Positions 3,802 to 53,501 of a stretch of DNA of 64,000 bases are shown here, piece after piece. The translations under genes and the position numbers were made by a program. Below the pieces are notes generated by a model. That model was not told the DNA's origin. It worked only from the letters and a program-made list of their open reading frames with translations, and did no database searches. How positions within the stretch are numbered: the first letter of the stretch is position 1; the number at the start of each line of letters is the position of its first letter. This stretch comes from Yuukianura sp. NJ FZ-2021 (lineage: Eukaryota): assembly GCA_046563655.1 (NCBI GenBank), contig CM102286.1:2108001-2172000 (forward strand). Reading direction: 5' to 3'.

Positions 3802-4575
3802 TTTGTTATTGGTGCAAATCTCTCGCTTCCTCAAATTAATAATCCAACTTAACGTTCTCAATTAACGATTAATTACTATTTACAGTTAATTACTAACCAA
3901 AAACAATTGACAGAAAAACCTTTTCGCTGCAATACAAAACACGTGTTGGTTGTTCAAAACGTTCGACACACACTGTCCGCTCCACCGCTCACCATATATG
4001 GGCATTCAATTTCTAATTTTAAAAACCGCGCCAAATTCATATTGTTTACATCTTCGACTCAAGCAAGCAAACAGCAAAACAAAAATTTCAACTTGAAGTT
4101 GAACAATATGAATGCTGTTGGATTTATCCTTCATCCTCTCCGTTCCCATTTAATTCAACGTTGATTAACTTCGAGACATTAAGTTATACTTTAAATTATA
4201 TTGGTCAATGGAGGCTTAAACTCTTCAACTCCACTTCGTTATCGTCGTTCCTGTATCGTCTGCTAGGTAAAAATAATTCAATTCTAAAGAAGATTACATT
4301 TCATTACCTAATTTAGAGACTGAGAGACAAGACAAGACAACATTGGTCCGCCTCCTTGGAAGACAACACTTAAAATTTCTAGAGTAGTTACCTCGAATAC
4401 TAATTATACAAAATGTTTACAATCCTTTGGAATTTTCTCCCACAGATTTTTGCAACACAGAGACAGAGGCTACTGGGTCAAAGAATACCGTGTATACTTG
4501 GGGCTAACAACTACGCAGACGCAAGACTGCTTCAACGACATTTATACGACTGAAACGTTTGAACCTGGAGAAGGG

Positions 4576-45183: not shown

Positions 45184-47218
45184 TTAATAGTTTGGATGCC
45201 TAGGAAAGACGAGTGTTTTGGCCAACATGTAGGATAAATCTGGAAGCTGCTCCAGGATACGAATGGCTTCTTTGTTCATTGGCGGAGTGGAGGAAACTGA
45301 AGCGACTTCTTCTATTGGAGACACGTCAGCATCAGGACTACAGTCATCTAGAAACAAAAACCACAAATGAAAATTCAGCGTTCATCGATATCACTTATCA
45401 CCAGCACGCCGAGAATTTTATATGTGATAAGCATGAAAAACTCACCGAGCCGCTCAATTCGCATACCCTCGTCTGTTTCCGGAGGATAATCGAAGCTGCG
45501 ACGTGCTGGCACAACAGATTCTGGTAGCAACGGAGAATCTACCAGACTCGACGCAAATTTTGGAACTTGTATTGTCCCATATTTTGCACTGTACACCTAT
45601 TTAAAAGACATACAAAATAGTCAGTCTATCATTCATAAAATGGTGATGATGATGATGCTGATGTGATGATGATGATGATGATGATGAATTGAAACTTACG
45701 ATATTGGAGTAGTCAATGTTTAGACTATTGAGAAGGAGATGATGGACACCGCTGCGTGGCCACTTGTGCAGTAAGCAATTGCTGTCTTCGAATTCCTGGA
45801 CATGCGTCCACGTGGAATTGGAATTAGAGGCACGATTTCCCAATTGTTTGTCAATTGATTCCAACGGATTTAGCTGCACTTCGTCTGATAGACTGAAGGG
45901 AGGAGATGGCTGGTTGAATACTGATTTGATAAGGGCATCTAGCCTTCCTTCTAACTGTACTGACTCTCTTCGGATTATTGGTGCAACTGGAGGCGTTGGA
46001 GCAGGCATGGAAGGCATCACTGAACATGACGGTGTAGAAACAGTCTGGAACGAGTCTAATAGTCAACAAACGATTAAGATTAATTAGAAAATGTCAATGA
46101 AATATGTACTGATTCTACTTTTACAATTCCACCTTTCGCTTCGGAAGAAGCAAAATCCCCGAAATCGTCCTCTTCGTCTTCTTGTTCTGCAAAATCTGGC
46201 ACTGGGGAGGGTGACCTCGGTTTGACATCTAAGGGATACGTTTGGGCTACTTCCACTTCTGGCTTTGAATCATCAAAACTTGGAAATGAAGGCTGGAAAT
46301 CTGGCACTGACTCATCGCAAGGAATTGTTGCCGAAGATGCTGTAAATGATTAACAGGATTACAATCGATACTTTCTATTTTTATTCAAGAAGTGTGGAAA
46401 TATTGTACCAATTGCCTCGGATGCTGTGAAATCGCCAAAATCACCGAAATCATCATCTTCGTTAACTTCGGGAACATCATTTTCTATTGGTTTCGCTATA
46501 TTGACTTCGGCGTGTTGAAAATTCCATTGTTCTTCGTCATCATCGTCAGAAAGCTTGAACTCTGGACACTCCAACGGTTCATCATCAGACTTTGAGCAAG
46601 TTCCGTTAACTAAGGAGGGAATCTCGTACGTGTCAGGAAGTCCTTCTGTAGCAGCAATTTCTTCTATTGGTGAGTCTCTATTAGACTGTAAACCTTGAAA
46701 CGCAAAGTTAAGCTAAGATGAATGTCCGTCCAGTCATTCCCAAGACTTTATACTGATTCCGACATACCTGTACAAGTTTCAGCGAAATCACCAGTATCCT
46801 CGGCTACTCCTATTGCTTCAGCTACGGAAGAGGTATTCGAATCCTCATCTTCCCTTGAATCCACTCCATTATTAGTTGACGACGATGAAACAACCGATTC
46901 GACTTGTGGCGTGGGAACAGCTAACGGTGATACTTTGTAATTATTGGAATTTGAGGCTGAGGCAAGTGGTGGCTTCCTCGGTGAGCTCATTGGAGATGGA
47001 TCTAAGAACAATCAAAAAGTAAGTCGTTTTCCAGTTAACATGAAAACAGAACTGTTGAAGCAACTCTTAAATCGAAGTCGTCATGTCTTGTTCTTACCCG
47101 CTGAAACGTCCAGATGGAGTCCATTTGACCTAAATTCATCGTCGAACTCTTCTCCATCCTCTTCATCGGAATCAATTGGAGGAGGTTCGTTCGATATCAT
47201 TGCCGGAAAGGCAGACAT
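45184..47218 (-). CDS. AFTPH: Aftiphilin (AP-1/clathrin accessory protein)
   Basis: PPP + acidic N-terminus, repeated DDDFGDF gamma-ear motifs, WTHVQEFEDSNCLLHKWPRSGVHHLLLNSLNID block, C-terminal ILEQLPDLSYMLAKTLVFP; in-frame upstream ATG at 47266 also possible. Confidence 0.85.
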
Positions 47219-48007
47219 TTTGTTCGTCGTCCTTCCTCCTTCCCTTATTATCTCAGTCTTGAGCATGCAAGCAACCTTGAAGACAAAGAACAAAAACACT
47301 TATTTACGAAACATGATTTATAATTCTGAGTCAACTACTTCTGTTGAGGTCCTCAACTTGAGGACGACAGAAATTCCTAGCAATTTCTTCTGCTTCCTGA
47401 ATATTCCGTCTTTAGTACGAAAAAAAACCTATGTTTTGCTTACCTACATTGACCATTGATATCCTATCTACGGAGTTTTCACAATGGACAATTAAAATCC
47501 AGCGGAAGAACACTTACTACTGCATGAAGATAAGATAAACAATAAACACCAGCTTTCACTTTTTACACATTCATAAATCAATTAAAATTCACCTGATTAT
47601 TCTTATTCTCCCCTTTGAAATTCGTGGGGTAATGCCAAGTACTTCTAACAGATGGCAATTCAACCTGTGCTTCCCCAATGGTGCTGTATACACTGAAATC
47701 CCTGTAATCTGTAAGTTTAATCGATTGAATTAACTGAATTACTAATTACAGTGGTGCCTAACTTGAACAACTTTCGAATTCAAATATCCAAACAACGATA
47801 AAATACTGGACGACTGGCCTGCTTCTTTCAGATTGTCGGTTGGTTCCAGCGTTCAGCAGCGATGTTGAAGTAGTACGCACCGGTACTGGTGCTTCGGCTA
47901 CAAAATGCAGAGGCTTTGTATGGACTTATTGATCGATCAATATACTTCGACACCCTCCAGGTTCAAAGATTTAACGGTTCAAGCTTCAATAGCAACATTG
48001 GAATTAG

Positions 48008-48020: not shown

Positions 48021-48179
48021 AGAAGCCAAAACATCGCATGACAAAGACATCACTTGAACATTGAATGCGACGCTTTTGAAGGGAACAAAAGCATTGGAAT
48101 AAAACTGACATCAAAATACACATGTAGACCATTAGATTGACAGCAGTTTCCTTGTTTGAATTGAAATTGAATTAAAAAA

Positions 48180-48839
48180 ATGTCGGTTCTGTGCTTGGGT
48201 CCTCCGGGATCCGGCAAAAGTTTGCTTCTGAAACGACTTCAAAATCACAGCGTAACGAAAATTACTGTTCCAATTGAAACTGTTGGAACGAACCTTGTCA
48301 TAATTCCAAAAACTTCTGGGTCAATCGACGACAAAACGAAAAAACGGAAGCAGGATAAGGAAGATGGCCTGGAAGTTCGGGAAGTTGGTGGGTCAATGGC
48401 TCCCTTGTGGCCGTCTTACTACGGCCCATCAATTAGATCTGTAAAGTCACAAAAAATCTATCAAATAAGATAAAATATATTATTAACAATATAAATATAA
48501 TAAATGTTTTACCTCTTCTAGATCCTGTTTGTCATCGATGCTAGCAATCTCTTCCAAGTATCAATTTCCACTGTGATGCTGATGGAGATCTTGTCACATT
48601 CGAAGTTGACCCAGGCAAAAGTACTTATAGTCTTGACTAAAGTAGATGTCACGGTACGTAAAAAAATCAATTACCTAAAGTTCATGATTCGACTTCCAAG
48701 TATTTTACAAGAGTTAGGCCCTAGAGTTGCTGCGGAAGAAGTGAGTGCTCTAACTGGAGATGGAATCGAAAACGTTAGATCATGGATTTTCAAAAATTCT
48801 TTACCGCCAAAAGTTGCTACTTCAACTGTTCGACACTGA
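48180..48839 (+). CDS. ARL16: ADP-ribosylation factor-like protein 16
   Basis: LCLGPPGSGKSLLLKRLQ, TVGTNL, REVGGSMAPLWPSYY (ARL16-type G3 variant), VLTKVD, VSALTGDG. Confidence 0.85.
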
Positions 48840-48958: not shown

Positions 48959-51154
48959 CTACATGAGGCGGGGCTTCTTTTCCGGTGGTGGCTTCATTCG
49001 TGGTTGTTGTTGTGGGTTCGGTTGCTGCTGCGACTGAGAGATGCCCGGTTCTTGCTTGATTCTTACGTTTTGGTTTTCTTTTCCCTCCGTCTTGACAGCA
49101 GTGTCTTCAATTGCTTCAAAACAATTTTTGAAAATTCATTTCACATCTCATGAATTTTTGAATTTTGTAAAGAGGCCTGGTTACCTGGTACTGGCTTTGG
49201 AGGTTCTGGTGGCCGCTGCTGTTGTGTCACGACGCGCGGAGCAAACTTTTTGGAAAGTTCGCCCAACAAAATATCGACTCGAACGCGTTGAAACACCGAA
49301 CTCGGTTCATCTTTGACCTTGTCCACTTTCTTCTTGGTCTTATCATCCACGACATCCTTCGTATTGAATTCCCACGAGTATCCTTTAGAAGGATGATATC
49401 GAGCATAGGACACGCATTCAGTAAAGGCTGACTGGAGGTGGTTGATTGTGTTCATCTAAGGAATTAAGAAACGTTACCGTAAAACTTCTAATAAACGACG
49501 GAGGTAAAAGTTCGGATTTTGAATAAACGTCCGGGTATTTATGAGAAGTTTTACGGTATAACTTTTAAGAAAGAGTTGGAAGGGAACGAACCAATCGCGA
49601 GTTGACAATTGAGCTCAGATCTGGTGCTTGGTAAACAACTCCAGCGATGCAGTAATAGTCAGCAATGGGTGTCACTTGTCCGCCAGCTGATGCATGTCGA
49701 TGCTGTTTCCGGATAACGTAGAGAATCGGCTCCTGGACATGCAGCAGTATGTACTCCATTCCATCCATGCTACTGCAAATTTCAAACAATTTATATTAAT
49801 AAATCAATCGATTAAGTTTTTTGGTTAAAAATGTTTCAATTTTGAATCTTACTTGAGATGACTGGGACTGAGCCGTTGCATTTTGATAATTTCATTGTTG
49901 CAAGTCTTGTCATAAAATGGATTGGAACGTTCAGAGAAATAGTCGAGAATATTGGCAGCATTTAGAATCGGAATCCATTGGGTATCATGCCATGAAATCC
50001 CTAATAAACCTCCGGCTCCTACAACCAAATGATTAATCGATTAACGGCTTTATACCAGAAGTGGCGGACTTGAGTTTATTCTACTGAAAATAAAAATAAC
50101 ACGAATTATAACAATTCTAAGCTTCTTATGCAGTTTCTTGGTTTTGCTGCTGTTGTTGTTGCTGCTGCTGTTCCAGTATTCGTTGTGCTTTGAGCAAATC
50201 AGCAATTTCCCATTCCCTCTCGTTGACATCGTAGTTCTTCATCTTTTCTATTCCAATCCACCACCGATTTCCAAATCCAATGTCAATTAGACGTTCGTTA
50301 AATTCTCGGAGGCGGGGCTTGAGGTAAGTACACGTAGCACTGATAGCTCCTACTTCCGGTGAGTTGTCGTGTCGCCATACGACAGAAAAGAATCCCAAAC
50401 TTTGGTAACGTAATTGGCCCTTGAGGCGCAGTTTTTCAATCGTGGTGCAATGCTCTACTGAAGCTGGGTTTCTAATAGGAATTCCGACGAGAGCCAGTTT
50501 AGTACGATTTTGAAAACATTCTTCATCGAAATCGGCTTCTGTAGGATTTGTCCACAGGAGGTACCCCATTGCTCCGAAAATGGCAGAGTAGAGTACTGTT
50601 TTCCATGGTTTTTGCTTTCCTTCAGTGTAAGCATCCTTGAACACTTCTCGGTAGTCTCTCCACATGTTGGAGTAGAAAATTATGATTTGTTCTTTCATTG
50701 ACTTCTTTGGAGGCGGAGGAGTTTCTGGTTGAGCAGACTGCGGTACGACGGGTGGCTGGATCTGGACGGGATCTACCGTCGGTGACATTGGAGATGCAGC
50801 AGGAGTAGTAAGTTCATGGCCTGCAGTTTTAGTACCGGGTTTTGATTTGACTATAAACTGAGATGTAGCGGTGAGTGAGAAACATCGTCCAGGGTAATGC
50901 AAATGATGACGAGGATAAAGAATCCGGAGAGATGAAATCCCCCTTGCGATTAACATTCTAAAGTTGACTGCAGTTAACGCCTGAAGAAATTACCACCAGG
51001 AGACCGTGAGCGTTGCGCAAGAGTGAACCAATCGATGATAGATGAAGAGAACCAATCAATTTGAGATCCCTGGTGTTCTTCCCTACCTACGTTGTTGTTT
51101 TTATAAGTAAGGCACGTCTAAATGATTACCTTTCATACTATCGTGTGAGTTCAT
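48959..51154 (-). CDS. MED6: Mediator subunit 6
   Basis: [80 protein letters not shown]; start exon 51154-51130 joins acceptor at 50018 in phase. Confidence 0.92.
49477..49556. mobile_element. 80-bp MITE in MED6 intron, same family as 16980-17279
   Basis: TA-CCGTAAAACTTCTAATAAA ... TTTATGAGAAGTTTTACGG-TA. Confidence 0.8.
50126..50956 (-). CDS. TIMM29: Mitochondrial import inner membrane translocase subunit Tim29 (single coding exon, nested in MED6 intron 1)
   Basis: Arg/Ser-rich presequence, [15 protein letters not shown]+[43 protein letters not shown]. Confidence 0.85.
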   Translation of the reverse strand: MLIARGISSLRILYPRHHLHYPGRCFSLTATSQFIVKSKPGTKTAGHELTTPAASPMSPTVDPVQIQPPVVPQSAQPETPPPPKKSMKEQIIIFYSNMWRDYREVFKDAYTEGKQKPWKTVLYSAIFGAMGYLLWTNPTEADFDEECFQNRTKLALVGIPIRNPASVEHCTTIEKLRLKGQLRYQSLGFFSVVWRHDNSPEVGAISATCTYLKPRLREFNERLIDIGFGNRWWIGIEKMKNYDVNEREWEIADLLKAQRILEQQQQQQQQQNQETA

Positions 51155-52415
51155 TTACTTGAAAGTTAGTTTGGTTGACCTCTCGCGTATCGATTTCTCC
51201 AGATGACCGGAACTAAAAATAGTCCGCACAAATTAGGGAACCAACCAAGAACAAACCAACATTGACATAATGAGTGACAGTAGACGTTTGTTTTGAAAAA
51301 TCCTTACCTGGATTAATAGCTCCAGTAACGTTGACGAGAACTACAGTTTTCAACTGCTATAAAATGCTAATTTAAATACATATTTGTATACCTATTTTAT
51401 TTTCAATCGTTTTTTAAATCACATGTTTCTTTTACCAATTCAAGTGTTTTCCATCCATTGTCGATGTCCTGCAATCAAAAACTGTGTTTCATTTTCAAAA
51501 AAACTGATTTCCCGCACGCAAGATTCAAACGTGCGCGAGATTTTGAACTTAAAATTCTAAAAACTAGTCCACCGAATTGAGGTCACGTTTATCCATACTC
51601 ATTGTACCCACACATTTTTTCTATTTTTATAATTTCAAATTTGAAAGAACTAAATCAATATAAAGTGAAGATATGTTAATAAATGAAGAAAATTCATTGG
51701 CACAATCGTTGCCAAACGGAAGTTAGCAATAAGTGCATGAGCGGTTTGATTTCCGGCCAATGTATGGCGTTGAGAACTCATTTAGTGGGGTAAGCTGTAC
51801 TTCAACCAAGAACTAAAAAACAGGAATTCATAAAAATTAAACTAATTTTTAGTAGTGCGCATGAATTTGAGTTGAAAAGTTAGCAATTCACGGAGATTTC
51901 TTGAGAGTTTGAGATTTTCTTATCTTTCGAGAATGAGAGAGTTTATTTGTTTACCATTCATATACCCCTATCAATCATATTCCTGCTTTTAATTCCACCA
52001 GGCATCTGGGGTGGCGGTGGCAGTTGGTGGGGACAAGTGCTGAATGACAGAGTTTACTGGTTTTCAGTCCATTTCAAATTCAAACCAGAAGGTCAGTCCA
52101 TAGGTTATTACTACCTTTACTTTAGTTTAATCGGTTCGCTCAGGACTTGGGCAGTACGGTGGCAGCCCTAACATCAGAATTTCTGGTTAGTCACATGTTT
52201 GTATTTACGTGAAAATTAATGCATTTGTGTATGTACACAGGGCGGGCCGGGCGGAGTGAAGTGGAAAGTTTTGCAGAAGTGGAATAACTTAGCGCTCAAG
52301 GTCATCTTACACAAAACTTCACTGGAAAGTCGAGGAACTACTGTTTGTGCCAAACACCAAGTTTACACTACCTGTTGCTTTCAAAGTTACGAAGTTACCA
52401 CAAGAAGGCACAGAA

Positions 52416-53501
52416 ATGGATTCATCAAAACGAATTTTACGACCGCCTATAAAAATTTCAATTCTTGAAAAACATGAGAGTGAAGTTTCGTATGGCTGGA
52501 AAGCATGGATGATCTTCAGCTACACAATTATTCTAATCAGTGGTATCGCGACAAGTTTAGCTATTGGCAGTATAATCAAAATGTTTGGAAACGAATGCAT
52601 TTTGTACTCGTCACCGAAAGACGTGAAAGTTACTGCGAACAACACGATTAGTATAGCAACAACTGGAAACAACTGGGGGTCCATGAGCTACTGTAACTTC
52701 TGCCAGTTTTGTCCAGTAGCTTCTGTTATCTTCGCTGGAGTCTGGGGCGTGCTGTTCGTCATGTGTGGACGTGGTGGAAATCCAGATTCCAAGTCAGTAA
52801 CAATTGATTTTCTTCAACGTATTTGATTACAAATACTGTTTTTTTTTGTCTTTTTAGTCTTCCACAGCCCTGGAGAATCGTACCACCAGCGATTGTTTTC
52901 AGTTTCGTCTTTGTTGTACTCTCCTGTGTTAGTGTCGCGCTTACATTTGGTGGATTCGCGTCGTTTTGTGATGCAATAATGGCAACTGTCACGGTGCCCA
53001 GGTAAGAATTTTGACCAACGAGATGGTTAATTGTAATGTACTGTCACTGTCTCCTGGATAACTTTTCACCTTTTGTTTGCTTTTGCAGTTGTGAAGATCT
53101 GGATGAGTACACTTGGCCAGCTTATCCGAAGGCGCAGTTCTTCTACGACGATGTGATTATCGCCGAGGCAAGAATTTTAAACTTGGCAATATCATACTGA
53201 CGGTCGGAATTAGCCAAATGTTTCGTTTCAGGTCGGATCTGCAATCACATTGGTAGCCTGGCTGATGGGATTCCTTATTCTTACAATCCGGTGCATACGA
53301 CACGCCGACTTCCATATCGTAACCAGAGCTTTGGACCAACCAGCATCACCCAGTGACGAAACTGCCATTACCTCTGTGAGTAACAACAGTTCTTCAGTGG
53401 TAAGCCCTAAGTCATCACCAACAGATAATGAGCCACTCATTCTTGTCAATTCCACCCAAAGTGATACACCGTCAAGTTCGACTAAGTTAAGGAAAATGTA
53501 A
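52416..53501 (+). CDS. TMEM179: TMEM179-like four-TM protein
   Basis: F-G-N-E-C-I-L-Y and WGSMSYCNF cysteine motifs, four hydrophobic segments, GFASFC; 4 coding exons incl. GC-AG intron 53168-53231. Confidence 0.65.

Follow-up and report, generated by a model that had tools for sequence, protein, structure and literature searches.

How can one short piece of a single DNA strand yield two proteins of unrelated function when the whole gene for one lies in an intron of the other? The question is posed by MED6 and TIM29 in a 64,000-nucleotide stretch of Yuukianura sp. NJ FZ-2021 (the window; GenBank assembly GCA_046563655.1, contig CM102286.1, positions 2,108,001 to 2,172,000 of the forward strand). 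The complete TIM29 gene is nested, on the same strand, within the first coding intron of MED6. An earlier note on this DNA had described the nest; the features it named lie on the minus strand where it had placed them, and the nest recurs in the contig of a relative. We consider it somewhat more probable than the alternatives taken together (about 0.6) that the two genes form one transcription unit, in which TIM29 would serve as an alternative last exon.

TIM29 within the first coding intron of MED6

TIM29 is a single unbroken, intronless frame of 276 residues (50956-50126, minus strand, as for all features of the two genes unless stated). It matches the Pfam Tim29 family (PF10171) over positions 7-169 of a 169-position profile (E = 5.5e-47; 159.8 bits against a cut-off of 25), and its first 45 residues hold seven Arg or Lys and no Asp or Glu, resembling a mitochondrial targeting leader. 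The protein appears to be an ordinary family member, and an inner-membrane TIM22 role is predicted from the family and the basic N-terminus. TIM29 (C19orf52) is described as a metazoan TIM22 subunit whose predicted presequence in human (residues 1-16) is uncleaved on import (PMC5016092). The window protein departs from this in its long, Pro-rich leader and its Gln-rich tail.

The MED6 start exon (51130-51212) comprises a 58-nucleotide leader, an ATG at 51154 and eight codons plus one base, that is, 25 coding bases ahead of a phase-1 donor, AAG/GTAATC, whose first intron base is 51129. The ATG and the 51130 end agree with the earlier note, but the 5′ edge is 51212 and not 51213, the latter being the G of an AG. 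That AG (51214-51213) reads TTAGTT, an initiator-like word, and may mark a start site rather than an acceptor. Exon 2 (49853-50018) and exon 3 (49592-49772) are defined by Pfam and by the open spliced frame, with the Med6 domain (PF04934, E = 5.8e-14) spanning both. Exon 4 (49185-49455) follows from the spliced open frame and ends at either 49185 or 49192; the last exon (48959-49113) has its acceptor at 49113, 49104 or 49090. With these ambiguous splice sites the whole protein measures 255-265 residues; it is 52-70% identical to its best 15 homologues and, judged by Pfam, is likewise an ordinary member of its family.

The 107 nucleotides between the TIM29 stop and MED6 exon 2 contain no ATG, so MED6 must splice across TIM29. 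A MED6 start downstream of TIM29, checked separately, is thereby excluded for the window; the corresponding gap in the relative L001 (below) does contain ATGs, and the upstream start exon is conserved. Exon 2 needs a phase-1 partner, and the exon 51154-51130, the sole upstream ATG-bearing phase-1 exon with a good donor, supplies it, bearing out the in-frame join to the acceptor at 50018 proposed earlier. This join removes an intron of 1,111 nucleotides, nearly all of it filled by TIM29, and places 15 residues ahead of an ISW motif. The motif could be located in 107 of 120 MED6 homologues, 87 of which have 8-19 residues ahead of it. A start through a donor inside TIM29 was set aside, as the listed phase-1 GT sites there match poorly by eye, and no TIM29-MED6 fusion protein occurred among the 136 MED6 and 170 TIM29 proteins compared. 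Gene predictors are likely to merge the two genes or to miss the MED6 start exon.

Conservation was assessed with five further TIM29 loci (L001-L005), obtained from one scan of metagenome contigs and all above the Pfam cut-off. L001 keeps the whole nested layout: a start exon, an intronless TIM29 of 274 residues, an AATAAA, the far acceptor, MED6 exon 2 and the same upstream neighbour gene. Its start exon has nine codons plus one base and shares 13 identical bases with the window across the donor. Four-fold sites differ at 45 of 66 positions in TIM29, 9 of 15 in MED6 exon 2 and 25 of 42 in the neighbour gene; they are near saturation, and non-coding words common to both loci are therefore informative.

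L002 is more distant, its TIM29 domain being 44% identical and its tree position outside the subclade of Allacma plus the window (87/85). It carries one ATG-led phase-1 exon of five codons, ending in Lys plus G/GTTAGT, 365 nucleotides upstream of TIM29; in 128 kb of window strand this pattern occurs twice, both times at MED6's own in-frame ATGs. TIM29 is likely nested in MED6 in L002 too. In trees, the window MED6 groups with Orchesella dallaii (92/89), and Allacma fusca shares a 100/98 clade with the window TIM29, which makes the animal a probable springtail.

The near-saturated synonymous sites suggest that the nest is old, probably extending across springtail lineages. The two outgroup loci, L004 and L005, have no MED6 in the 470 and 3,870 bases past the TIM29 stop. 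Ahead of the domain their frames stay open for only 14 codons and show an acceptor-like site, against 87-112 open codons in L001, L002 and L003 and a continuous frame in the window. The outgroup genes thus appear to have an intron ahead of the domain, which, set against the continuous springtail-clade frames, fits an intronless copy landing in a MED6 intron. In other animals, MED6 gene-caller fragments run into an intron near the start-exon junction; the MED6 intron therefore seems to be the older feature and TIM29 a later arrival, probably inserted there as an intronless (retroposed) copy. L004 also shows a tandem duplication of about 90 nucleotides at the end of its TIM29 frame (2790-2937). 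A sixth candidate, L006, was a chance match of 16 residues and was rejected as a TIM29 relative, and the viral and prokaryote sequence collections gave no matches.

One transcription unit or a promoter within the intron

If MED6 and TIM29 form one transcription unit, a transcript would either splice over TIM29 to make MED6 or splice to a TTCAG acceptor just ahead of TIM29 to make TIM29, and in the latter case would end at an AATAAA within the intron. Both landmarks are present. The near acceptor region (50957-50995) holds three AGs, with exon starts at 50980 (TTCAG, the best), 50967 and 50957; the earlier note had named the first, TTCTTCAG, which exists as described but is one of three within 24 nucleotides of the TIM29 ATG. 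In all three loci with a MED6-type start exon, the TIM29 ATG has a TTCAG with a pyrimidine tract no more than 60 ATG-free bases away (at −24 in the window, −10 in L001 and −57 in L002); among window ATGs at large the figure is 69 of 2131 (3%). Behind TIM29, the previously reported AATAAA (50080-50075) was confirmed between the stop and the MED6 acceptor and is also found in L001; it sits within a 9-nucleotide block (50075-50083) identical in L001, 56 nucleotides from the intron end in the window and 47 in L001. An AATAAA arises by chance in about 12% (window gap) and 16% (L001 gap) of 2000 shuffles and by itself is weak evidence. As features of the sequence, TIM29 is thus bracketed by a TTCAG in three of three loci and by an AATAAA in the window and L001, none being visible in L002.

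We infer from this arrangement a shared promoter, use of the near acceptor and use of the intronic poly(A) site. The earlier note had envisaged a possible switch between nuclear and mitochondrial expression, to which none of the present findings points. MED6 and TIM29 are both housekeeping proteins, expected to be needed by the same cell, and the simplest outcome would be two housekeeping messages made in a fixed ratio rather than a switch. No conserved hairpin was found at the near acceptor (z from −0.8 to +0.6 for the 5′ parts of the intron; the best value, −1.48, came from the L001 gap). Two sites in L002 may be recorded here: a very strong acceptor at 1237 (pyrimidine fraction 0.93), 100 nucleotides after the candidate start exon, which suggests extra leader exons, and an AAG at 1415 that would connect the candidate start exon in frame to TIM29.

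Several observations weigh against a single transcription unit, some of them by pointing to a promoter of TIM29's own. The TTCAG pattern, like the upstream-donor pattern discussed below, was picked after the sites had been seen. Judged only by its pyrimidines, the 50980 acceptor is unremarkable (33% of 3075 YAG sites have as rich a tract), and the block that aligns between the window and L001 ahead of the TIM29 ATG is CAGTCA at 50967, not 50980, a word readable as acceptor or as initiator. The identical 9-nucleotide AATAAA block alone is not above chance, appearing in 12.6% of shuffles. The L002 sequence stops 44 nucleotides past the TIM29 stop, and its nest is only a likely one. L003 belongs to the same TIM29 clade; its 113 upstream bases, free of ATG, contain no TTCAG, and the 184 bases after the TIM29 stop no MED6 exon. 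Within the window intron, a TATA word, TATAAAAA, stands at 51105 (14 occurrences in the window), and two CCAAT boxes, at 51026 and 51050, form the only close pair among the 12 CCAAT boxes of the window. In both L001 and L002 a TCAKTY word lies within 20 nucleotides of the TIM29 ATG, as it does at 64 of 2134 window ATGs.

These last features would be expected if TIM29 had its own promoter inside the MED6 intron, with MED6 transcripts running through and splicing TIM29 out. On this reading the near AG would be either an initiator element or part of a TIM29-only leader intron. We regard this as a serious but rather unlikely alternative. It does away with the problem of upstream open reading frames (uORFs) in all three loci, and TIM29 is preceded by 180 ATG-free bases, a length equalled by 5.8% of ATG gaps. 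The CCAAT pair (51026-51058; 24 nucleotides apart within a 22-nucleotide direct repeat) lies 60-90 nucleotides upstream of an initiator-like word at 50968. Two such boxes in 173 nucleotides have a Poisson P of about 5e-4, a value to be read with eight motifs tried and with the direct repeat, which may reflect a single duplication. Exact TCAKTY words stand twice ahead of the TIM29 ATG in L001 and L002, one of those in L002 reading CAT and not CAG. Against an internal promoter, neither the TATA word (51093-51105, overlapping an A/C-rich block whose ACAACAA part alone is common with L001) nor the CCAAT boxes are found in the L001 intron. The initiator-like word, taken as the start, would leave TIM29 a leader of just 8-14 nucleotides, the TTCAG acceptors in three of three loci count for splicing, and the motif consensuses come from fly and mammal and may not hold in this animal. 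The DRE-like word WATCGATW occurs nine times in the window, three of them in the MED6 locus (51188-51195, 50035-50042 and 49806-49813); two of these three are near branch-point regions and none is found in L001.

A composite last exon was also considered, in which the donor at 51129 stays unused. The message would continue from the start exon into the intron and end at the AATAAA there, and reinitiation after a short uORF would give TIM29. Unspliced, the MED6 ATG opens 17, 14 and 6 codons in the window, L001 and L002, and these frames stop 144, 111 and 344 nucleotides ahead of TIM29. In the window the intervening stretch contains no ATG, but there is one in L001 and there are three in L002. 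Any intron would be expected to bring an early stop, the TTCAG acceptors are left unexplained, and we hold this version to be improbable.

Translation of TIM29 and passage past its poly(A) signal

For the favoured single unit, the further question is how TIM29 would be translated from a message that begins with the MED6 start exon. The earlier note had TIM29 follow a 15-codon uORF, created by the 51129-to-50980 splice, whose TAG (50960-50958) ends one base before the ATG at 50956, with translation by reinitiation or leaky scanning. The window does offer a canonical splice with this geometry. Its first MED6 ATG stands in a weak context (T at −3), and the TIM29 ATG has an A at that position, in L001 as well. 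The geometry is not kept elsewhere, however: among the window, L001 and L002, a stop codon adjoining the downstream start was found in the window only, and the same splice gives reading frames that overlap TIM29 out of frame in the two relatives. The three near AGs of L001 give frames of 92, 48 and 89 codons and the TTCAG acceptor of L002 one of 43 codons, with ends relative to the TIM29 ATG of −1 (window), +241, +113 and +241 (L001) and +59 (L002). Because of these overlaps reinitiation cannot serve in L001 and L002, and leaky scanning would be poor in L002, where the MED6 ATG sits in a strong context by the Kozak rule (A at −3, G at +4). The second in-frame ATG of the window exon (51136), with A at −3, would likewise catch scanning ribosomes, and a one-base spacing between stop and start is poorly suited to ordinary reinitiation. 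Fixed reinitiation is unlikely, the stop-before-start spacing appears incidental, and the uORF form as a whole is doubtful. L001 has small frames of its own that are not in the window, namely a start-stop ATG TAA overlapping the MED6 start (3885-3892) and a three-codon open reading frame in the start exon.

Since the uORF geometry is not kept and a donor-like GT precedes the MED6 ATG in three of three loci, we tentatively prefer a TIM29 message with an ATG-free leader. Such a message would lack the MED6 start codon, being spliced from an upstream donor at 51158 or 51307. The first, CAA/GTAAAT (51153-51158), lies just upstream of the MED6 ATG; a donor-like GT 3-6 nucleotides ahead of the ATG is seen at 293 of 2131 window ATGs. 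The site ahead of the MED6 ATG matches the consensus at 7 of 9 positions in the window, 6 of 9 in L001 and a poor 4 of 9 in L002. Its use would leave no upstream ATG on the TIM29 message in the window or L001. The second, CAG/GTAAGG at 51307 (8 of 9 positions), would end a candidate non-coding exon, 51308-51360, whose 5′ end is guessed and which, joined to 50980, gives a 77-nucleotide ATG-free leader. A candidate upstream exon in L001, of uncertain homology to this one, ends in an ATG, so that skipping from there would not be ATG-free, a point that counts against this route.

The two proteins could also share their first residues, if the splice from 51129 to 50967 made TIM29 start with MED6's eight residues and four more. 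The product, of 288 residues, would still have a net basic leader, and the AG at 50967 is the one that aligns with that of L001. In L001, though, the three near AGs are all out of frame, and the tract at 50967 is poor (51% of YAG sites are as rich), with another AG 13 nucleotides upstream; in-frame sharing is very improbable.

A single unit must also let MED6 transcripts pass the TIM29 poly(A) signal. A G/U-rich downstream element of a poly(A) site is expected about where the MED6 far acceptor lies. That acceptor, TTTGGTTGTAG (50019-50029), is itself G/U-rich and has 11 bases identical in L001, whereas three orthologous acceptors of the neighbour gene share only 2, 2 and 2 bases between the two loci. 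The far acceptor may thus double as the downstream element of the TIM29 poly(A) site. It also has a complement in the start-exon leader, an A/C-rich block (51170-51177) that is the longest word common to the window and L001 leaders. The two match over 8 base pairs in the window (51177-51170 with 50029-50022) and 10 in L001.

This complement suggests an RNA latch, a speculative and rather unlikely device, in which the leader block, as 5′ arm, would pair over 1.1 kb with the G/U-rich intron end. Messages keeping the block would loop out TIM29 and mask its poly(A) site, giving MED6; those without the block would be cut, giving uORF-free TIM29. A position-matched complement was reached in 37 of 1500 shuffles for the window and 9 of 1500 for L001, and a shared and complementary 7-mer in 69 of 20,000, while in 11 other introns the same test gave at most 6 base pairs and always at least 503 of 1500 shuffles as good. 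Against the latch, a search of the whole 5′ region leaves the pairing without significance (570 and 92 of 1500 shuffles), and equilibrium folding of the 1.2-1.3 kb regions gives it a probability of 0.0; moreover, the comparison was made post hoc on two sequences, and the core shows no compensatory change. In C. elegans, complementary intron elements are reported to steer the splice choice at unc-17/cha-1. Whole-region pairing of the 5′ part of the intron with the gap was matched by 73% and 61% of shuffles. A second, nested helix between the ACAACA block and the gap (−6.7 and −9.6 kcal/mol) was given no weight: its 3′ arm is placed differently in the two species, and the ACAACA block by itself does not exceed chance (76% of shuffles).

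Neighbouring genes and known nested arrangements

MED6 is flanked head-to-head by a four-exon membrane-protein gene (52416-53501, plus strand) that occupies the same place in L001 (2657-1465). It has no Pfam match, and its best Atlas match, TMEM179/179B-like at 0.88, is a candidate assignment only. Its third intron (53168-53231, plus strand) begins with GC (GAG/GCAAGA) in the window and with GT in L001, which suggests that a GC-AG intron was gained or lost between them. Tail-to-tail with MED6 lies a small Arf-family GTPase gene (48171-48839, plus strand; Pfam Arf, E = 2.7e-7). The two stops are 119 nucleotides apart and no AATAAA or ATTAAA occurs within 458 nucleotides past the MED6 stop, so the 3′ untranslated regions probably overlap. 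Further along, an acidic multi-exon gene with repeated FGDF words (45600-47300, minus strand) has no convincing Pfam match; we take it to be aftiphilin-like.

The layout itself is already known, and by its anatomy the MED6/TIM29 locus appears to be another case of shared-exon-type nesting. The closest counterpart is the cholinergic locus. In ticks, the VAChT open reading frame is a single exon in the first intron of ChAT, with a shared exon confirmed by reverse-transcription PCR (PMC7524744), and the C. elegans unc-17/cha-1 locus has a shared untranslated exon (PMC3875643); for unc-17, splicing elements close to its 5′ end are also cited (PMC13299628). That locus combines a shared upstream exon, an alternative 3′ splice site, a separate 3′ end and two products needed in one cell. 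Common to both systems are a whole same-strand second gene in the host's first coding intron (here in the window and L001) and an acceptor ahead of and a poly(A) signal behind the nested frame, known here from sequence alone. Unlike the shared cholinergic exon, which is untranslated in the worm, the MED6 start exon carries the host ATG, and sharing here is inferred; the cholinergic proteins act in one pathway, whereas MED6 and TIM29 are unrelated in function.

Drosophila supplies the class to which the favoured reading would belong, unrelated neighbours with one promoter and shared leader exons. FlyBase counts 130 genes with a common promoter and common 5′ non-coding exons, besides 10 pairs and one triplet that share N-terminal residues, and regards same-strand nesting as too ordinary for flagging (PMC4528330). 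The fly cases rest on cDNA and RNA-seq, whereas MED6/TIM29 is known from its sequence; the pair was not present in the 11 of 12 supplementary files of that work that were searched. Coding overlap is recorded for Rpb4/Ada2a (21 shared residues), Su(var)3-9/eIF-2gamma (80) and mRpL13/CG10602 (49) (PMC4528330, File S2). Like MED6, such genes have a short ATG-bearing first exon ahead of a second, unrelated gene that was probably inserted into an intron, and the set also includes an RNA polymerase II machinery gene and a mitochondrial gene. Unlike them, MED6/TIM29 has an in-frame join only in the window (50967) and not in L001. Mammalian nested genes favour 5′ introns, are commonly in the same orientation and show intronic polyadenylation interacting with host splicing (PMC11694760); they are treated there as separate units in long introns, whereas the 1.1 kb MED6 intron is nearly filled by TIM29. 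Our literature search, which lay outside subscription papers and springtail genome annotations, found no paper on the TIM29/MED6 pair or on springtail nested genes.

What MED6/TIM29 adds is a compact and apparently old case, in which 1.3 kb of DNA has to serve two unrelated housekeeping genes and a poly(A) signal is crowded about 50 nucleotides ahead of the host acceptor. How a host transcript passes the poly(A) site of a nested gene is a general question; at this locus it narrows to an 11-base conserved word and its 8-base partner.

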